Below, piece by piece: positions 2,833 through 16,486 of a stretch of DNA of 64,000 nt. The notes under the pieces were generated by a model, which saw nothing but the letters and a program-made list of their open reading frames with translations, did no database searches and was not told the origin of the DNA. Every line of letters starts with the position of its first letter. Position 1 is the stretch's first letter. This DNA comes from Candidatus Beckwithbacteria bacterium (lineage in GTDB: Bacteria; Patescibacteriota; Microgenomatia; UBA1400; UBA1449). Location of the stretch: contig JAAZOH010000038.1 in the NCBI GenBank assembly GCA_012797845.1, positions 11,919 through 75,918 of the forward strand. The letters run 5' to 3'. The position numbers and the translations under genes were made by a program.

Positions 2833-3642
2833 ATGACAGAAGATTTTAGAAAAATAATGGCAGCTAGGGCAGCAGGAGTAACAATTATTACAGAAGAAGA
2901 AACTGCAAGAGAAAGACAAAAAACCGCAGAAAGATTTCAAAGGATGGTTGAAAGAGCTGGGGTTATGGATGTACTAGAATTTGCTGCTTTAAGTATAGAA
3001 AAATATCACAGCAGTAGAGACAATGCTGGAGATGTAAAAGTTGGAAAAGCAGCTGTTGATAGATTGGGAGTACAATTTATGGGTAAACACATGCTTTGCC
3101 GACCTAACCGTTTTAATAATACTACTGTTGGTTTAGAAATGTATTTTCGAGACAGAGATGGTGATATCGTTAGTAAACAACCAATTTTTGCAATTACCAT
3201 TGATCCCAAAATGAGAGACACAGATGTTTTTATACTTTCATGTGCAATCAGGGAACTAGGATCAAATTCACATTTTACTGATTCTGGAGTATATTTTCAA
3301 AGGTATGAGTGTGGTACGAGCGCTGATTTTGCCAATGCTATGATGAGTTTTTTAACAGCACCAAAAGTAGATAGGTCAGCCTATAATAGCCAAATAACTC
3401 TCCGTTATGTTGTAGAACAATATGGGGCAGAACATATACCATCTTTTTATGAATATGATTGTTTGGGAGATATTCCGATAGAATTAGTTGCTCCTAACGA
3501 TTCCCCCTTAATAAAAATTGCAGAAAATCTTGCTTACTCTTGTCCTACAATAGGACACCATCTTGGTAAACCAATGGCTATACTCAGAGATGCTAACATA
3601 TTTCGGTTAACTGCTCCCATTGTACTTAAAGGAAGAAATTAA
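2833..3642 (+). CDS. hypothetical protein
   Basis: 269-aa ORF preceded by AAAGGA RBS-like sequence. Visibly less AT-rich than its neighbours. Confidence 0.45.
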   Translation: MTEDFRKIMAARAAGVTIITEEETARERQKTAERFQRMVERAGVMDVLEFAALSIEKYHSSRDNAGDVKVGKAAVDRLGVQFMGKHMLCRPNRFNNTTVGLEMYFRDRDGDIVSKQPIFAITIDPKMRDTDVFILSCAIRELGSNSHFTDSGVYFQRYECGTSADFANAMMSFLTAPKVDRSAYNSQITLRYVVEQYGAEHIPSFYEYDCLGDIPIELVAPNDSPLIKIAENLAYSCPTIGHHLGKPMAILRDANIFRLTAPIVLKGRN

Positions 3643-3883
3643 TATATACCTTCAAGACCAAAAGACTTGTTGGGGTAGTTGCTCAAAAAAGAAGAACCTT
3701 AACTTTAACTGGCGAATTGTTTTACTGCCCGACCATTTGGCTGATTACATTGTCATTCACGAACTGTGTCACCTGAAGGAGTTTAGTCACTCTCGAAGAT
3801 ACCGGAACTTAATGGCAAGTGTGCTGCCTAACTATCAAGAGCTTATCACAGAATTAAAAACCAGTGGTTTATCGTTAGTATAA
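3620..3883 (+). pseudogene. C-terminal fragment of YgjP/DUF45 (M48-like HExxH) metallohydrolase
   Basis: 87-aa ORF containing WRIVLLPDHLADYIVIHELCHLKEFSHS, which matches the HExxH-bearing C-terminus of YgjP-family proteins. The N-terminal ~140 aa of the family are absent. Confidence 0.55.
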
Positions 3884-4080: not shown

Positions 4081-4099
4081 TAGCTGCCAGGTGCAGCTA
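4081..4099. promoter_or_regulatory. palindrome tagctgc-N5-gcagcta upstream of MSNEDL paralog 1
   Basis: 7-bp perfect inverted arms. The same element occurs at 6909-6929 before paralog 2. Confidence 0.5.
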
Positions 4100-4846
4100 T
4101 TTTTTACACTTATGTCAAATGAAGATCTTAGAGGCAAGTTGCGAAAACAAGTAACTGATCATGCTGATTTTTTGTTGGCTGATAAAGAGCAACAAAAAAG
4201 AATTTTACTAGCAGAAGAGCGAAAACGTATCAGACAGATGGTAAAGGAGCATGAACTCATGAAACAACTAGAAGTGGCAGATGTGTTACAGATGCTTGTT
4301 GATATTGCAAATGAGGACTCAATAGATATGCAACCACTTGCTGAGGTAATTCAGGAAGGAAATGTAAAACATTGCGAGAATGGAAGAGTTGAAGTTATTA
4401 CTGGCATGCTGCCAAACCAGGGAACTAGAGTTAAAAAAGGAATATTGGCTGTAATACCGGAATTTAGAACAGAAAAAAATAACCCAACTTTACTATTTGC
4501 TAGAAGATCTCTGGATAGTAAATATGAACTATATTTACCAGAAAATTGCATTGTTTATCAACAAGTTGAATGTTCTAGCTCTGATCAGGTGGGAGAAGTA
4601 GCATTGCAAATGCTTTTACTTGATAAAAGCATGGAAGACTTATATAAAGAATCTTTTGGACGTTTTGCTCTTATTGGCTTTGGTGTTTCCCAATTATCTT
4701 TTAGTAGTAACCTTTTAGACTCAAAGATTTTTAGCCAAATGTCATTATCTCTTTTTGCAACGTTTGGGAAAACTGCCACTAGTGTAGTTAGTCGAATGAG
4801 AAAAAGTAGCCATATCTACGATAGAGCAAAGAACTATTTACTTTAA
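4091..4846 (+). CDS. MSNEDL-family protein, paralog 1 (possible ATP-grasp substrate/partner)
   Basis: ORF track starts at a GTG inside the palindrome. The likely true start is the ATG at 4112 (MSNEDLRGK...). Shares N-terminus and internal motifs (LxxLVxxANxD, LLFARRSLD/LLIARPPKD) with the ORF at 6941. Confidence 0.55.
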   Translation: MQLFFTLMSNEDLRGKLRKQVTDHADFLLADKEQQKRILLAEERKRIRQMVKEHELMKQLEVADVLQMLVDIANEDSIDMQPLAEVIQEGNVKHCENGRVEVITGMLPNQGTRVKKGILAVIPEFRTEKNNPTLLFARRSLDSKYELYLPENCIVYQQVECSSSDQVGEVALQMLLLDKSMEDLYKESFGRFALIGFGVSQLSFSSNLLDSKIFSQMSLSLFATFGKTATSVVSRMRKSSHIYDRAKNYLL

Positions 4847-4939: not shown

Positions 4940-5956
4940 ATGCAATTTGAAAGAGAATTGAAAACACAAGAAATTGAACCCGGGACAAGTGGTCTTGTTT
5001 TACTTGTCAGTAGGCAGTTTGATCCTCATGTTGATTTTATTATTGAAAAGTTGAGATCAGAAAACATCCAGTTTGCCAGATTTAACACTGAAGATTTTCC
5101 AAGAAATACTTCCGTAAGTTTGTATTTGGGAGATGGCGAGACATCTGGATTATTGGATGTGCCCAACAACTTACCTTTTTTGCTAAACCAAACCAGATCA
5201 ATTTTATACAGGAGACCAGCAGAACCTAATCCACCAGATAATTTAACCAAGGGCTTTGAAGAATTTGTGGTTTCTGAGAGCAAATCAGTTATAAAAGGTT
5301 TATGGTCGTTACCCGATGTTACTTGGGTAAATTACCCGGAAGACAATCGAAGAGCTGCTATCAAACTAGATCAGCTAAGACAGGCCCAAATACTGGGTCT
5401 TTCTATTCCCAAAACTCTAGTCTCCAATAATATTATTGACATTAGATCCTTTTTTGACCTGTGTCATGGAAGCATGATAGTAAAACCTTTAACCGTAGGA
5501 AGTATCGAAGAAGATGGTATATATAAAGCTTTCTATACTAGCAAAGTTGAACCGGAACATTTAGACCAACTTGGCCCGGATAATAGATGTCCTTATGTAT
5601 TTCAAGAAAATATTCCCAAGGAACTAGAATTGAGAATAACTATTGTTGGAAATAGTGTGTTTGCAGCCGAAATCTTTTCTCAAGAACAAGAAGGAGCTGA
5701 GACCGATTGGAGAAAAAAGTGGGAAGGCTTACGCTACGGAATTCATGAGCTTCCCGAGGATATTAAAAATAAATGTTTGAAATTAGCTAGACATTATAAT
5801 CTAAATTTTGGAGCAATAGATATGATAGTAACTCCTAGAGGTGAATATGTTTTTTTAGAAATCAATCCAAATGGTCAATGGGTTTGGATAGAGCTTGAAA
5901 CTGGATTACCAATATCAGAAGCTATGATAAAACTTCTTTCTGAGAATAAGCACTAA
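4940..5956 (+). CDS. ATP-grasp ribosomal peptide maturase (MvdD/MvdC-like, graspetide family)
   Basis: N-terminal pre-ATP-grasp pattern VDFIIEKLRSENIQFARFNTEDFP... and C-terminal GAIDMIVTPRGEYVFLEINPNGQWVWIELETGLPISEAMI, matching the microviridin-type ATP-grasp hallmark. Confidence 0.7.
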   Translation: MQFERELKTQEIEPGTSGLVLLVSRQFDPHVDFIIEKLRSENIQFARFNTEDFPRNTSVSLYLGDGETSGLLDVPNNLPFLLNQTRSILYRRPAEPNPPDNLTKGFEEFVVSESKSVIKGLWSLPDVTWVNYPEDNRRAAIKLDQLRQAQILGLSIPKTLVSNNIIDIRSFFDLCHGSMIVKPLTVGSIEEDGIYKAFYTSKVEPEHLDQLGPDNRCPYVFQENIPKELELRITIVGNSVFAAEIFSQEQEGAETDWRKKWEGLRYGIHELPEDIKNKCLKLARHYNLNFGAIDMIVTPRGEYVFLEINPNGQWVWIELETGLPISEAMIKLLSENKH

Positions 5957-6465
5957 GGTTTATTGAGTTTTTTTACAGTTTTAAATGTTTCTTTTAAAGG
6001 AGAAATATCAAATTTTTTTCGCAAAGAATCAGGAATGATATTTTCATAATTAGAAATAACCCATTTGTCTTTTTTAAGCTCGAATTGTGTTACAAAAAGT
6101 TGTGGCCTGGAAATGCTTAAAAGAAATCTGTCTATGGCTAAGGCCATATAATTTTTACACCAGTCATCTCCTAATACGCTTCCAATAGAATAAAGGGTAA
6201 CAGCCAAAGCATAATCATTATAATTAGAACCGTGATGAAAAAAATGCCCTGCCCGAAAATAATCATCTGCTGTTTTTAGTTCTCCCTTTTTAAGCATTTT
6301 CAAAACTAGGTCTTTTATTTCTACTTCTTCTTGGTAAAGCTTTTTAATCAAATTCTTTTGTTTCTTTAAGTCAAACACATATCTTTTTTTTTGAACCTTT
6401 TCAAATAGTTTAATAAGTTTTTTGTTTGAATTTGGAGATTTATTAAAATAACCCTTTTTTACCAT
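5953..6465 (-). CDS. hypothetical Lys-rich protein
   Basis: 170-aa ORF convergent with the ATP-grasp gene. Confidence 0.4.
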   Translation of the reverse strand: MVKKGYFNKSPNSNKKLIKLFEKVQKKRYVFDLKKQKNLIKKLYQEEVEIKDLVLKMLKKGELKTADDYFRAGHFFHHGSNYNDYALAVTLYSIGSVLGDDWCKNYMALAIDRFLLSISRPQLFVTQFELKKDKWVISNYENIIPDSLRKKFDISPLKETFKTVKKLNKP

Positions 6466-6533
6466 ATAAATAAATTCTTACAACCTTATCTAAAGGTAAT
6501 GCAAGATTTTGATTAAAATATTTTATGTTTCAC

Positions 6534-6725
6534 TTAATCATCTCGACCTTGATCAATTTGTGTGACATCTACGCTGATATGTGTTGGAACAGTACAGATT
6601 GTTCCAGCTGCATTAGCATGTCCCGCAGTCCATGTTTGACTATCAGGATCATATTGTCCTTCAACAGGAGCTAGATCAGCAATTGCAATGTCTTCAGTAA
6701 ACTGGGAAACAAATTCTTTTGACAT
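6534..6725 (-). CDS. small peptide, candidate RiPP (graspetide) precursor
   Basis: 63-aa ORF with a strong SD (AGGAGGTGA) 8 nt upstream of the ATG. Acidic leader-like N-terminus and a Thr/Ser/Asp-rich C-terminal half. Lies ~600 bp from the ATP-grasp maturase. Confidence 0.5.
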   Translation of the reverse strand: MSKEFVSQFTEDIAIADLAPVEGQYDPDSQTWTAGHANAAGTICTVPTHISVDVTQIDQGRDD

Positions 6726-6908
6726 AACTTCTCACCTCCTTGTAAACTTTTGCTTATACTTTCAGTTTTGCATTATGTTTAAAAAATATTTAAAAGTCAA
6801 ATAAACACAAAAAAGGCTGAGCCATGAATAGAGTTCAGTGAGTTAAAAGCGAAAATTAAGGAGAAAAATATGATATAATTCTCCTTATTATATTAATAAT
6901 AAATAGAC

Positions 6909-6940: not shown

Positions 6941-7663
6941 ATGAGCAATGAAGACTTAAAATGTAAAGCATTGGCTGGTCTAAAAAAAGGCCAACAAGCA
7001 AATTCAACAGTAGAAGAAGCAAAAGAAGCTAAGGCTCGATTTAAAAAAGATCAGTTGAGAAAATTACAAGTTCAAGAAACATTGACTTTTTTAGTTGAAG
7101 CTGCAAACACTGATGATCCTGAATTAGGAGAAATTAGAGAAGCAATGCATGTAAGATTTGGAGAACAAAAATTATCAGTTGAATATAACGAAGACCAGAC
7201 TATTGTATTGTTACAAAATTCTAGTAAAAAGACTGTAATGGCTATTGGTGTAGAAACCTATGGTCGAGATAATAAAAGTAGAGGTTCGTTGTTAATCGCT
7301 AGGCCTCCAAAAGATATCAAAGCAACATTTCGCAGAGACACATCTGAACCAGTATTGTTTATGAGAAAAAAATGTATAGATACGGGCGCTGTTGCGTCAA
7401 GTGTAATGGAATTTATAACTACTGATCAAGTTACTGAAGGTAGATGTCCAAGTGATGTTGGAGAAGATTTTTTGAGTAAATACCCTGGTTTGAGCTATGA
7501 TTACGCTGTTTTTGAAGAAATGTATGAGTTAGCATATCCCGATACTGATTCAGCTCCAAAATTAAATATATCATATAGTTATACAAATGATCTTCCTATG
7601 CATGTAGGCTGTAATAGCTATGTTCAATGGATGTTTGGAAAATATTTCGCAAATCGAGCTTAG
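6941..7663 (+). CDS. MSNEDL-family protein, paralog 2
   Basis: 240-aa ORF starting MSNEDLKCK. Distant paralog of 4112-4846. Confidence 0.55.
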   Translation: MSNEDLKCKALAGLKKGQQANSTVEEAKEAKARFKKDQLRKLQVQETLTFLVEAANTDDPELGEIREAMHVRFGEQKLSVEYNEDQTIVLLQNSSKKTVMAIGVETYGRDNKSRGSLLIARPPKDIKATFRRDTSEPVLFMRKKCIDTGAVASSVMEFITTDQVTEGRCPSDVGEDFLSKYPGLSYDYAVFEEMYELAYPDTDSAPKLNISYSYTNDLPMHVGCNSYVQWMFGKYFANRA

Positions 7664-11900: not shown

Positions 11901-12992
11901 ATGGCTAAATCAGATAATTCCTTAATCCATATCCATGAAGTGGTTAAAACCTATGAAACCGAGGCCGGAGATTTTACAGCCCTTAATAAAATTAATCTTT
12001 CGGTTGGTAAAAGCGAATTTGTCGGAATTATTGGCAAATCCGGGAGTGGTAAATCAACTTTGATCAACATGTTGACAGGGATTGACCGCTCGACAGCTGG
12101 CCAAATTGTCATCAATGGGACTGATATTACTAAACTTGATGAAGGCCAAATGGCGGTTTGGCGAGGCAAAAATATGGGGATTGTGTTCCAGTTTTTCCAA
12201 CTCTTACCTACGCTTACCGTTATTGAAAACATCATGTTGCCAATGGATTTTTGTAATGTTTATAAGCCAAATCAACGCAGCCAAAAAGCTTTGGAGTTGT
12301 TAGGGCAAGTTGATTTGGCAGACCAAGCTCATAAATTCCCCAGCCAACTATCAGGTGGACAGCAGCAGCGGATTGCTATTGCTCGAGCTTTAGCCAATGA
12401 CCCGCCGATTATTTGTGCCGATGAACCAACCGGCAACTTAGATTCTAAAACAGCTGAACAAATTTTTGGTCTGTTTCAGTCTTTAGTTGATAGTGGCAAA
12501 ACTATCGTTATGGTGACTCACGATAAAGATCTAGCTAAAAAAGTCAGTCGGACGATTTTAATTGCTGATGGCCAAGTGATTGAAGAATACCTAATGAGCA
12601 CTTTTTCCTCTCTAGCTCCTGCCAAATTAGCCTGGGTGACTGAGCAAGTCGAAACTGCTGAATTTGCACCAGGCAAGCTGATTGTCAAAGAAGGTGAGGT
12701 TATGAATTATTTTTATGTGATTATGAATGGTATGGTTGAGATTGTAATTTCTAAAAATAAAAAAGAAAAAATCTTAGGAACCTTTGGGCGAGGTAAATAT
12801 TTTGGAGAAATAGAGCTATTTCATGATACTAAAAGTATAGCTTCAGCTCGAGCTGGCAAAAAAGGTGTCCGGATTGGCCGGATTAAAAAAGATGTTTTTA
12901 ATCAAATTGTGCATGAAACCCCGGTTTTGGGAAAGAAACTTCGTAACTTAGCTAGTAAACATTGGGAAGAAAATAAAACTGCTAGAAAGTAA
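11901..12992 (+). CDS. ABC transporter ATP-binding protein (MacB/LolD-like) fused to a C-terminal cyclic nucleotide-binding domain
   Basis: Walker [10 protein letters not shown], signature [15 protein letters not shown], Walker B. C-terminal [10 protein letters not shown]...ARA pattern typical of cNMP-binding domains. Confidence 0.7.
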
Positions 12993-12994
12993 TT

Positions 12995-15376
12995 ATGAAT
13001 CCTCGATGGAACAAAGTTTGGCGTGATTTGTGGGCCAACAAAAGTCGGACTATTGTTGTGGTTTTAGCTATTGCTGTAGGAGTTATGGCTTTTTCTTCAG
13101 TTTTTATTACCAGAGCTGTGTTACTCAAAGACATGAACACTCAATACACAGCTATTAATCCTTCCAGTGTAATTTTACGTTTTCGGGATGGTTTTGAGCC
13201 TGATTTGGTCAACTGGATCGAAACTCAAAAAGGAGTTAAAGCAGCTCGGGCCACTGGTGGGACTTTGGTGCGGATCTTTACTCCTCAAGGTGCTAGAAAT
13301 GTGGAATTAATTGCCCTAAATGATTATGACAAAATTTTAGTGAATCAAGTTACTCCAGAAACTGGGTCTTGGCCACCCCAACGTAAAGAACTAATTTTTG
13401 AGCGGCGTTCGGCTTTAGCTCTCCCCTACCAGTTGGGTGATGATATCGAAATTGAAACGCCAAAAGGCCGGCAAAAAACCTTAAACTTTGCTGGAACAGT
13501 TCATGATTTACGAGCTATACCAGCTAATCTGTTTCCTCAGTTTACGGCTTATGTTTCTTTTGACACGATCCGCTATTTGGATGAAAGTGATGTCCTTACC
13601 AGTCTGGAAATCCAAACTGACGATACAATTAAAACTAAAGACAAAGCTTTAGCTTTAGGGAATCAGCTTAAAAAAGACTTAGAAAATCGAGGTTTTGAGC
13701 ATATCAGTGTTAGAGCTGAAGATCCCAACAAACATTGGAGTCAGGATGTAACCAGTGCTTTTGTGATGATTCTGACTATTATCGGAGCTTTTTCCTTAGT
13801 GTTATCTTTGTTTTTAGTTTTCAACACAGTTTCAGCTATTGTAGTTCAGCAAAAAAAACAGATTGGCATTATGAAAGCCATTGGAGCTAAACGGCTCCAA
13901 ATTAGTATTTTATTTTTAGCTATGGCTTTAAGCTACGGTTTCCTATCGCTTTTAGTAGCCATTCCAGTTGGAGCCTTGTTGGGTTATGGAAGCTTAGCCA
14001 TGGTAACAAATTTTTTAAATTTGGAAATTTTAGATTTTCATATTCCGCCAATGGTACTAGCTATGGAAACAGGTATTGCTTTAGTAGTACCGGTTATTGC
14101 TGCTTTAATTCCTATTATTCAAGGTACTAAGATTACCGTTCGAGAAGCTATCAGTGATTATGTGGTAGCTAAACAGCAAAAATCCTGGCTTAATTCTTTA
14201 TTAACCGAACTGACGATGTTGTCGAGGCCAATGGCAGTTTCATTACGTAATACCTTCCGGCAAAAAGGCCGACTGATTCTAACGTTGGTAACTTTAACAA
14301 TAGCCGGAACACTCTTTGTCAGTGTAATTGGAGTGCGCAGCTCTATGGTTGTTGAGCTCAATAATATTTTGGAACTGAATAACTATGACATGGAACTGTA
14401 TTTTGATGGGACGTATGATAGCCAAAAAGTCACTACTGATACTCAAAAAGTTGAAGGCGTAGCAGAAGCTTATACTCCACTAAATATTTCCGGTGAGTGG
14501 CAAAAAAATAGTGGCTCAGAAAGTGATCAAAAGGAATTCATCCCGATTCAAGGATATATACCCAACTCTCAGTTTTCACTGGTTACTATTACCAGGGGCC
14601 GGAATTTACAACGCAGCGACAGTAACCAAATTATTATTTCCAATAAATTTTTGCGAGATGATCCAAGCATAGAAGTAGGTAAAACGCTAACCTTTACTAT
14701 TAATGACAAAGATTATGATTTTGAAATTGTCGGTGTGTACCTGCTAGCTGATACTAAAATGGTTTTGGTAAACAGCAATTATTTGCGCAAAATCGTGCCA
14801 GATGCTGATCAAGCTAGTAGTGTTCAGATCAAAACTACCAAGCATGATTCAGCCTTTTTGATAAGTTTTGCTAAGACTGTCGAAGAAAGCATGAAACGAC
14901 GGGGTTATGATGTGGCTTATTCTCTAACGATTGACAGTATTCGCAGCGCTTCTGCCGGTCAATTTGATTTTCTGGTGGGATTTTTGATGATGATGGCGGC
15001 TTTAGTAGCGGTAGTTGGTGGCCTCGGCTTAGCTGGCACCATGTCTTTAAATGTTTTAGAGCGAACTAGAGAAATTGGAGTAATGCGCTCAATTGGTGCT
15101 TCAAACAGCTCGGTGTTTAGATTGGTTATTGTGGAGAGTTTAAGCATCGGTTTTATTAGTTGGTTGATCGCAGTGCCTTTATCAGTGCCTGTAGGATTAG
15201 GTTTTTGTTATGCTTTGGGAACAGCTTTTTTTGAAGAAGTTTTACCATATGTTTTTTCACCAGTTGGTATGCTTATCTGGTTAGTGTTGGTTATTGTGAT
15301 TGCTGTTTTGGCTAGTATAGCTCCTGCTAAAAAAGCAGTTAGCCTAACTGTCAGAGACACTTTATCATACGAATAA
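12995..15376 (+). CDS. ABC transporter permease, FtsX/MacB-like (two FtsX modules)
   Basis: 793 aa with two TM clusters and a large extracytoplasmic domain. Translationally coupled to the upstream ATPase. Confidence 0.65.
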   Translation: MNPRWNKVWRDLWANKSRTIVVVLAIAVGVMAFSSVFITRAVLLKDMNTQYTAINPSSVILRFRDGFEPDLVNWIETQKGVKAARATGGTLVRIFTPQGARNVELIALNDYDKILVNQVTPETGSWPPQRKELIFERRSALALPYQLGDDIEIETPKGRQKTLNFAGTVHDLRAIPANLFPQFTAYVSFDTIRYLDESDVLTSLEIQTDDTIKTKDKALALGNQLKKDLENRGFEHISVRAEDPNKHWSQDVTSAFVMILTIIGAFSLVLSLFLVFNTVSAIVVQQKKQIGIMKAIGAKRLQISILFLAMALSYGFLSLLVAIPVGALLGYGSLAMVTNFLNLEILDFHIPPMVLAMETGIALVVPVIAALIPIIQGTKITVREAISDYVVAKQQKSWLNSLLTELTMLSRPMAVSLRNTFRQKGRLILTLVTLTIAGTLFVSVIGVRSSMVVELNNILELNNYDMELYFDGTYDSQKVTTDTQKVEGVAEAYTPLNISGEWQKNSGSESDQKEFIPIQGYIPNSQFSLVTITRGRNLQRSDSNQIIISNKFLRDDPSIEVGKTLTFTINDKDYDFEIVGVYLLADTKMVLVNSNYLRKIVPDADQASSVQIKTTKHDSAFLISFAKTVEESMKRRGYDVAYSLTIDSIRSASAGQFDFLVGFLMMMAALVAVVGGLGLAGTMSLNVLERTREIGVMRSIGASNSSVFRLVIVESLSIGFISWLIAVPLSVPVGLGFCYALGTAFFEEVLPYVFSPVGMLIWLVLVIVIAVLASIAPAKKAVSLTVRDTLSYE

Positions 15377-15418
15377 AACTTTTTTGAAATATCTGGTAAA
15401 ATACAGCCTGTATAAACT

Positions 15419-16486
15419 ATGAATAAGATTTTTGCTTGGTTTTGGAACCATAAATTTAGATCCATCATTCTTCTCCTGATTATTGGAGCGGTTATTTTTT
15501 ACGTGATCAAAAAAAACCAACCACCCAAAGTTGAAACAGCTACAGTTAGCAAAGGTGAGATTACCAGCATTATTGAAGCTTCTGGTCAAGTCATGGCCCA
15601 AGAAACTGCGGATTTAACATTTAGTGCTACTGGTAAAATTGCCTGGGTTGGAGTTAAAAAAGGTGACCAGATTAGTAGGTGGCAAGCTTTAGCTAGCTTG
15701 GATCAGCGGGAACTGCAGAAACAACTTAAAAAAGCTTTGCTTACCCAGCAAACAACTCGGAATAATTTTGAAAATACCATTGTTGATTATGATTACGGAA
15801 TTAGCTCAGTCAATAATTATGATATTCAAACTAGAGGCGATGAAGACTTGGTGATCAAGCGGCTACTTATAAATAATCAAATTTCTTTAGATAGTGCAAC
15901 GCTGGATGTAGAAATAGCCGATTTAGCCAGAGACTATGCTACTTTGATTAGTCCCATTTCAGGTACTGTAGTCAATGATGGTAGTCTAAAACCCGGGCAG
16001 TGGTTAACAGCTGCCAATCTTAGCAGTAAAGCAATTCGGATTACTGACCTTTCAACGCTTTATTTTCAGGCTAATATTGATGAAGCTGATTATGCCAATA
16101 TCCAAATTGGCCAAGCAGTTATCATTACCTTAGATAGTTTTCCTGACAAAAAAATAAATGGCACAGTGACTTTTATTGGCAAAGAAGGTGTCAAAAAAAC
16201 TGGTGGTAGTGTCCAAATTCCCATTGATATTGCTATGACTAATGCTCCCTTAGGAGTAGTAACTGAACTGAATGGGGATGTAAATGTAATTTTACAGAAA
16301 AAAAATAATGTCTTGAAACTTGATAAAACGTTTGTTCACAAAGAGGATGACAAGTACAGTGTCAATATTTTAGATAATAATAAAGTCATTTCTAGGCCAG
16401 TCAAAATCGGTCTTATCGGTCCGGATAATTACGAGATTATAAGCGGTTTAGCTGAGGGTGACCAAGTAGTCAATGTGGTGAAATAG
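15419..16486 (+). CDS. HlyD-family periplasmic adaptor (MacA-like)
   Basis: N-terminal TM, coiled-coil segment, beta-barrel C-terminus. Confidence 0.6.
   Translation: MNKIFAWFWNHKFRSIILLLIIGAVIFYVIKKNQPPKVETATVSKGEITSIIEASGQVMAQETADLTFSATGKIAWVGVKKGDQISRWQALASLDQRELQKQLKKALLTQQTTRNNFENTIVDYDYGISSVNNYDIQTRGDEDLVIKRLLINNQISLDSATLDVEIADLARDYATLISPISGTVVNDGSLKPGQWLTAANLSSKAIRITDLSTLYFQANIDEADYANIQIGQAVIITLDSFPDKKINGTVTFIGKEGVKKTGGSVQIPIDIAMTNAPLGVVTELNGDVNVILQKKNNVLKLDKTFVHKEDDKYSVNILDNNKVISRPVKIGLIGPDNYEIISGLAEGDQVVNVVK

Follow-up and report, generated by a model that had tools for sequence, protein, structure and literature searches.

The locus described here lies in a window of 64,000 nucleotides (the whole stretch of DNA that was analysed) from contig JAAZOH010000038.1 of a Candidatus Beckwithbacteria genome. 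Three genes make up the module of interest: an ATP-grasp gene on the plus strand, a partner gene convergent to it on the minus strand, and a small open reading frame (ORF) just upstream of the partner. The features of the module are as follows:

4940-5956 (+), graspetide-type ATP-grasp ligase (338 aa) that has an MvdD-like pre-ATP-grasp domain and in which D256-W257-R258 is invariant
5953-6465 (−), partner gene of 170 aa, divergent DUF6624 family, 68 nt downstream of the peptide gene, its 3' end overlapping that of the ATP-grasp gene by 4 nt
6466-6533, spacer of 68 nt between the peptide and partner genes, with a small hairpin
6534-6725 (−), candidate gene for the precursor peptide (63 aa and a stop codon; MSKEFVSQFTEDIAIADLAPVEGQYDPDSQTWTAGHANAAGTICTVPTHISVDVTQIDQGRDD), hypothetical protein GYA49_04555 in GenBank
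6537-6602 (−), predicted core peptide TICTVPTHISVDVTQIDQGRDD (aa 42-63), with putative donors T42, C44 and T48 and putative acceptors D58, D62 and D63 at the C-terminus
6630-6659 (−), leader motif 2, GQYDPDSQTW (aa 23-32), common to the upstream precursors of many related ATP-grasps
6699-6716 (−), leader motif 1, EFVSQF (aa 4-9), the window's version of PFxxxF
6732-6740 (−), Shine-Dalgarno sequence AGGAGGTGA, 6 nt before the ATG and occurring once in the window
6772-6800 (−), promoter-like site TTGACT-17-CATAAT, about 47 nt upstream of the ATG, a consensus match only (10 of 12 positions)

The 63-aa minus-strand ORF was confirmed at 6534-6725, with a sequence identical to that quoted in the preliminary description. 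The peptide is acidic, with 11 Asp/Glu residues against 2 Lys/Arg (net −9), and the identical sequence is publicly deposited as a hypothetical protein from a Candidatus Beckwithbacteria MAG. It had been placed next to the ATP-grasp gene; it is not a direct neighbour but the second one, with the 170-aa gene at 5953-6465 (−) intervening. That the ORF is less AT-rich than its surroundings is correct as measured (GC of 0.40 compared to 0.27 and 0.21 in the adjacent spacers), but it is no special signal, reflecting instead the usual contrast between coding and intergenic DNA here (neighbouring genes, 0.30-0.40; window, 0.35). No Pfam or NCBIfam entry matched the peptide, and a word-index search returned the peptide itself alone. 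A phmmer search against 1.84 billion representative sequences recovered one true relative (P0210, 46% identical). The remaining phmmer matches were long repetitive proteins or translations of a 'PTHVGVDR' repeat and were judged compositional or spurious. Among them, for P0212 and P0219, the peptide segment VPTHISVD draws proteins built on a 'VVPTHVGVDR...RPHARGGGP...SSPRTWGWT' repeat, which resemble a translated repeated DNA element and are unrelated.

The Shine-Dalgarno sequence AGGAGGTGA, at 9 nt, is the longest anti-Shine-Dalgarno match in the window. When the longest start was taken for each of the 56 window ORFs of at least 150 aa and the region from −22 to −4 was compared, none had a match longer than 5 nt. 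The earlier characterization of the ORF as strongly translated is thus a fair reading, and its near-perfect Shine-Dalgarno sequence is indeed present, with a spacing of 6 nt rather than the 8 nt first given, a minor error. The 9-nt match suggests, from sequence, efficient translation. Upstream of three of six inspected orthologues (L167, L168, L171) lies GGAGGTGA, and two more have weaker purine-rich sites. The TTGACT-17-CATAAT element is the best promoter-like site on the minus strand and is well placed for the peptide gene; the overall count of promoter-like sites in the window did not exceed the shuffled expectation. An attenuator hairpin between the peptide and partner genes was considered and is not claimed, as the stability of the structure there did not exceed that of shuffled sequence (z −0.86).

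The enzyme encoded at 4940-5956 (+) belongs, by sequence, to the graspetide maturase family. It matches the MvdD pre-ATP-grasp domain (PF21068) above the cut-off (E = 1.7e-11), and TIGR04187, TIGR04184 and TIGR04185 at E values of 1e-69 to 1e-77 (258 bits for TIGR04187). Its scores fall under the NCBIfam cut-offs for every named subfamily, and it is therefore a divergent member. Its closest solved relatives in the PDB are microviridin and chryseoviridin enzymes, namely MdnC (5ig9; E = 1.3e-48), MdnB (5ig8), AMdnB and CdnC.

Related loci were gathered from encoding-contig look-ups, a one-genome-per-species scan, a metagenome scan and the context of the peptide's closest relative, and every ORF of the fetched contigs was scored with hidden Markov models of the peptide and the partner. 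The nearest homologues of the window ATP-grasp are 44-50% identical to it. The whole module, in which the ATP-grasp gene on one strand faces a convergent partner of ~175 aa preceded by a small ORF, was recovered in 21 of 21 fetched loci that had adequate flank (at least 700 nt of sequence downstream of the ATP-grasp) and an ATP-grasp with 43.8% identity or more along nearly its full length, yielding 13 distinct peptides besides that of the window. It was absent from every fetched locus with an ATP-grasp at 42.2% identity or below. Retention of a small ORF here in related clusters had been put forward as a check on the precursor proposal, and a homologous ORF is there in all 21. Woesebacteria, Ca. 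Microgenomatus and Beckwithbacteria are the hosts named, one MAG is labelled Pseudomonadales, and P0210 lies in the same three-gene module. Among the close orthologues L008, L009 and L016, dN/dS is ~0.07 (dN of 0.08-0.10, dS of 1.1-1.5). Orthologues in conserved synteny and purifying selection place the ORF beyond chance, and on sequence grounds it is a genuine, conserved gene.

Gene arrangement within the module is tight. The peptide and partner genes overlap in L172 (726-733, with the partner ATG lying over the peptide stop as ATGA) and in L169 (1 nt, at 2234), and in most other orthologues the gap between them is 8-25 nt compared to 68 nt in the window, an arrangement which implies that the two are translated together. 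The 3' ends of the convergent ATP-grasp and partner genes share 4 nt in the window (5953-5956) and as many as 32 nt in orthologous loci, so that transcription of the two arms must either collide or share a bidirectional terminator. Such 3' overlaps are seen, for example, at 6986-7008 in L001 and at 1522-1553 in L004. No leader peptidase, protease or exporter is conserved in the module. About 5 kb away in the window, three consecutive ORFs (11901-16486, +) resemble an ABC ATPase, a large permease and a membrane-fusion-type protein, their translations judged by eye; no such genes are conserved beside orthologous modules.

Alignment of the 14 distinct peptides divides them into a leader and a core. 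All 14 have E11, G23, Y25, W32, T42, T48, D58, D62 and D63, and 13 of them have Q30; at position 44, 11 peptides carry Cys and 3 carry Ser. The first leader motif, PFxxx[FY], is found in 10 of the 13 peptides from other loci; the corresponding window segment is EFVSQF, with Glu in place of Pro. Three orthologues appear to start downstream of this motif, and PFxxxF is therefore not strictly required. The second leader motif, G-x-Y-D/N-x3-Q-x-W, is universal in the family. The core follows the pattern T-x-[C/S]-x3-T-x(9-11)-D-x3-D-D-stop, its conserved positions comprising three nucleophiles and three carboxylates. The emphasis that the preliminary description placed on Thr and Asp in the C-terminal half was well founded, given that T42, T48, D58, D62 and D63 do not vary across the 14 distinct sequences; the 170-aa gene, the GxYDxxxQxW motif and the conserved Cys/Ser at position 44 had all gone unmentioned there. 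The window peptide is the most divergent member of the family, with Glu in leader motif 1, no ERPP segment before the core and a leader-core linker after W32 much shorter than in the orthologues. In L009 (4333-4400, −), an SPFAIKF leader lies in frame upstream of the first ATG, following a Shine-Dalgarno sequence GGAAGGGGGTGA and an ATA codon, a layout that suggests, from sequence, a non-canonical start codon.

The same leader recurs where graspetide precursors are conventionally found. ATP-grasps 32-42% identical to that of the window usually have a small same-strand ORF directly upstream, and many of these ORFs carry a PF...GxYDxxxQxW leader followed by a Thr-rich and then an Asp-rich core. 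The expression G.Y[DNC]...Q.[WFVIML] had 50 matches among the 12,568 ORFs in all fetched DNA, 45 of them in small ORFs, and the matched small ORFs nearly all adjoin an ATP-grasp gene. Profile comparison (hhalign) of the clade's peptides with eleven upstream ORFs of neighbouring ATP-grasp clades gave a probability of 98.0% (E = 2.2e-13), with an alignment spanning the leader and the start of the core. Comparison to known graspetide precursor groups, another check proposed at the outset, thus came out in two parts: the peptide family matched no curated precursor model in Pfam or NCBIfam (one orthologue aligned weakly to TIGR04186, E = 0.033), but at the profile level it is homologous to the ORFs upstream of related ATP-grasps. 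In several of the neighbouring loci, the ligase gene is followed downstream by a bona fide DUF6624 gene. From sequence, the window module is best read as the usual precursor/ligase/DUF6624 set with the precursor-DUF6624 pair inverted. In two Nitrospirae MAGs (L012, 3595-4008; L014, 485-898), the upstream precursors are 137 aa long and share the PF/GxYDxxxQ leader, followed by four repeated TKT...RE(S/A/G)DD core units; they resemble a multi-core graspetide precursor with a leader related to that of the window family.

The partner belongs to a tight family of about 80 clusters at 90% identity, 170-190 aa long, with no precomputed Pfam domain. D68, D112 and R113 are invariant in this family, and H78, T65, D67, R71, Q122, D146 and R149 nearly so. 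Against the Pfam DUF6624 model (PF20329), the window partner scores 11.8 bits (E = 0.17), below the gathering threshold of 27 bits, and the best E value among four partner orthologues is 0.026. Profile comparison of the partner family (A6) with five bona fide DUF6624 proteins from neighbouring loci (Pfam E values of 1e-16 to 1e-25) gave a probability of 97.1% (E = 6.5e-11 over 152 columns), with matching motifs HHG/QHA and (A)LDR...PQ.FGTQF. At the profile level, the partner is a divergent, remote DUF6624 homologue. An AlphaFold2 model (pLDDT 92.4) comprises five helices, a β-hairpin and two short helices; a Foldseek search of this model against the PDB returned nothing below E = 0.35, only a generic helical-repeat resemblance, and a PDB sequence search and a lenient Pfam search returned noise apart from weak DUF6624 matches. 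The N-terminus (MVKKGYFNKSPNSNKK...) has no hydrophobic signal segment, and the protein is therefore presumably cytoplasmic.

Taken as a whole, the conserved ORF, the invariant Thr and Asp residues and the homology to ORFs at the canonical precursor position support the candidate-precursor reading with which the analysis began. We consider it highly probable, on sequence grounds, that the ORF encodes a graspetide precursor for the neighbouring ATP-grasp, transcribed with the DUF6624-like partner, and that it is a candidate substrate for ring formation. In the mechanism we propose, the peptide and partner genes would be transcribed together, convergently to the ATP-grasp gene. The N-terminal ~33 residues would act as the leader, with EFVSQF (PFxxxF in orthologues) followed by GxYDxxxQxW, and by analogy with microviridin and MdnC this leader would dock on the pre-ATP-grasp domain and activate the ligase. 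The ligase could then, again by analogy, phosphorylate the side-chain carboxylates of D58, D62 and D63 with ATP to give acyl-phosphates. Attack by T42, C44 (Ser in some orthologues) and T48 would close up to three ω-ester rings, one of them possibly a thioester, and with three rings the peptide would be as much as 54 Da lighter. A nested hairpin arrangement (T48-D58, C44-D62, T42-D63) is plausible, although this is a guess. Leader binding and the number and topology of the rings are extrapolated from graspetide chemistry (PMC13097080, PMC8939145), and the role of the partner and the biological function are inferred. The partner would most likely work together with the ligase or else on the peptide, either as a substrate-presenting or stabilizing subunit or as a processing enzyme.

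C44 is a possible ring donor because it is Cys in 11 of 14 peptides and is replaced by Ser only. Two further proposals go beyond the precursor assignment, and we hold them to be rather unlikely: that C44 may be the donor of a native Cys-Asp ω-thioester in most members and, separately, that graspetide biosynthesis may have in the DUF6624 protein a new, obligate subunit or processing enzyme. Thioester linkage by graspetide synthetases has been reported as non-native only, and a literature search returned no report of a native thioester graspetide.

A different possibility, which we regard as quite improbable, is that the small protein is real but is not a substrate of the ATP-grasp, functioning instead with the DUF6624 partner alone, for example as a toxin/antidote or regulator pair, while the ATP-grasp acts elsewhere. 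The peptide gene is in an operon with the partner and not with the ATP-grasp, the overlaps in L172 and L169 suggest translational coupling of just these two genes, and DUF6624 is an uncharacterized family. What such a pairing leaves unexplained is that the leader and early core are homologous to ORFs that lie immediately upstream of related ATP-grasp genes and run in the same direction, and that the invariant residues are exactly of the Thr and Asp donor and acceptor types. Moreover, the three genes co-occur strictly, with no other candidate substrate conserved.

Substrates could also be sought in the genes flanking the module, which include three weakly paralogous ORFs of ~250 aa with no Pfam match (21-26% identity):

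2833-3642 (+), first paralogous ORF
4091-4846 (+), second paralogous ORF, whose end lies 94 nt upstream of the same-strand ATP-grasp gene
6941-7663 (+), third paralogous ORF

Were these the true substrates, the small ORF would be an accessory factor. Their position around the ATP-grasp lends this some appeal, as does the existence of large graspetide precursors such as corallotide (PMC13097080). However, a hidden Markov model of the three paralogues matches nothing in ~170 related loci, and they are therefore specific to this genome; they also lack a graspetide leader motif, and their paralogy is weak (best pairwise E = 2.5e-5). This explanation was rejected for their absence from all related loci, and we judge it highly improbable. 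The short length of the ORF and its lack of Pfam, NCBIfam or word-index homologues might suggest a frame that is open by chance or an artefact of annotation. Such a reading has a negligible probability; the conservation evidence in effect refutes it (13 distinct orthologues that keep their synteny, dN/dS of ~0.07 and Shine-Dalgarno sequences upstream of several orthologues), and the GC is coding-like.

The graspetide precursor reading places the module within a kind of system already predicted for candidate-phyla bacteria. Makarova et al. (2022) described graspetide loci of the candidate phyla radiation (CPR) in two groups, Branch 1 and Branch 2, with Phhx(1,2)h leaders and a TxxxTx(6-10)Dx(1-4)D core (PMC8939145). 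An uncharacterized 'cluster 23' family with conserved His and Arg was found in all Branch 2 and many Branch 1 loci (PMC8939145). The window module shares with both branches a Patescibacteria host, a graspetide-type ATP-grasp and a small precursor with an N-terminal leader. It differs in the orientation of the peptide and partner, which is reversed with respect to the ATP-grasp. Of the Phhx(1,2)h leader (PMC8939145), the window has a version without Pro (EFVSQF), whereas PFxxx[FY] is seen in 10 of 13 other peptides and three begin past the motif. The window core, C44-x3-T48-x9-D58-x3-D62, fits the CPR signature only if Cys/Ser replaces the first Thr; in the family as a whole, the first donor is Cys/Ser rather than Thr, and there is an extra Thr upstream. 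The Branch_1 genome Woesebacteria GW2011_GWB1_39_12 is among the loci fetched here (L069), and its ATP-grasp is 37% identical to that of the window, without the window-clade module. Many 'cluster 23' proteins are described as lipoproteins, unlike the window partner (PMC8939145).

In the survey of Carter et al. (2026), group 42 comprises 22 biosynthetic gene clusters, 82% of them with DUF6624 and many from candidate phyla (PMC13097080). DUF6624 is frequent in graspetide groups 18, 20, 23 and 42 and was flagged as a possible undiscovered biosynthetic enzyme (PMC13097080). RODEO group 42 resembles the window module in its co-occurring DUF6624 protein (the window's being a remote homologue) and in its candidate-phyla origin (Ca. 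Beckwithbacteria in the window). In contrast, its representative precursor (Komeilibacteria, MKKNSTPKPLILDRLRQPIEDIYKGGEKAMEGFTTHGTPNDPDSGGTD) has neither the leader motif nor the core pattern of the window family, and the window partner is too divergent to pass the Pfam DUF6624 threshold.

Among characterized systems, microviridin (MdnA/MdnB/MdnC, group 1) is comparable in its leader helix (PFFARFL compared to PFxxxF) and in the Thr/Ser-to-Asp/Glu ω-ester logic predicted for the window. The window core TICTVPTHISVDVTQIDQGRDD departs from the microviridin core TxKxPSDx(D/E)(D/E) in having no TxKYPSD and no conserved Lys for a lactam, and the leader is not PFFARFL. In the module, a single ATP-grasp is present where microviridin has two, together with a DUF6624 partner, and the genes converge. 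In rosaritide biosynthesis (MirA/B/C), three macrolactones are installed by a synthetase that depends on a non-catalytic partner with which it strictly co-occurs (PMC13097080). This provides a precedent for partner dependence, which in the window module would be a hypothesis; MirC is SurA/PpiC-like and unrelated to DUF6624, and the rosaritide host is an actinomycete.

Graspetides of candidate-phyla bacteria and their accompanying DUF6624 proteins have thus been predicted in two surveys, and it is within this kind of system that the present precursor family is apparently uncatalogued. Its characteristic strings were not found in the portions of the supplements of PMC8939145 and PMC13097080 that were covered, a partial coverage that does not prove absence. 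No experimental study of any DUF6624 protein or of any CPR graspetide, including any member of this clade, was found in the literature. The minimal three-gene module and its 14 natural variants define the leader motifs and six candidate ring residues, making it a convenient system in which to address the function of DUF6624 and the question of a natural Cys donor. For annotation, the gain is that three hypothetical proteins (GYA49_04545, GYA49_04550 and GYA49_04555) become a recognizable biosynthetic cluster.

Two minor features were seen elsewhere in the window. Between positions 500 and 800, GC rises to 0.45-0.48 (0.35 in the window), with no long ORF, tRNA or Rfam match, and tRNA and Rfam scans of the whole window likewise found nothing. 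An 87-aa ORF at 3620-3883 (+) matches a YgjP-like metallopeptidase (PF01863; E = 3.8e-29), but only its C-terminal HExxH part (positions 134-206 of 207), and overlaps, in a different frame, the end of the ORF at 2833-3642. A frameshift or a gene fusion may lie behind it; metallopeptidases have been noted in some CPR graspetide loci (Makarova et al., PMC8939145).
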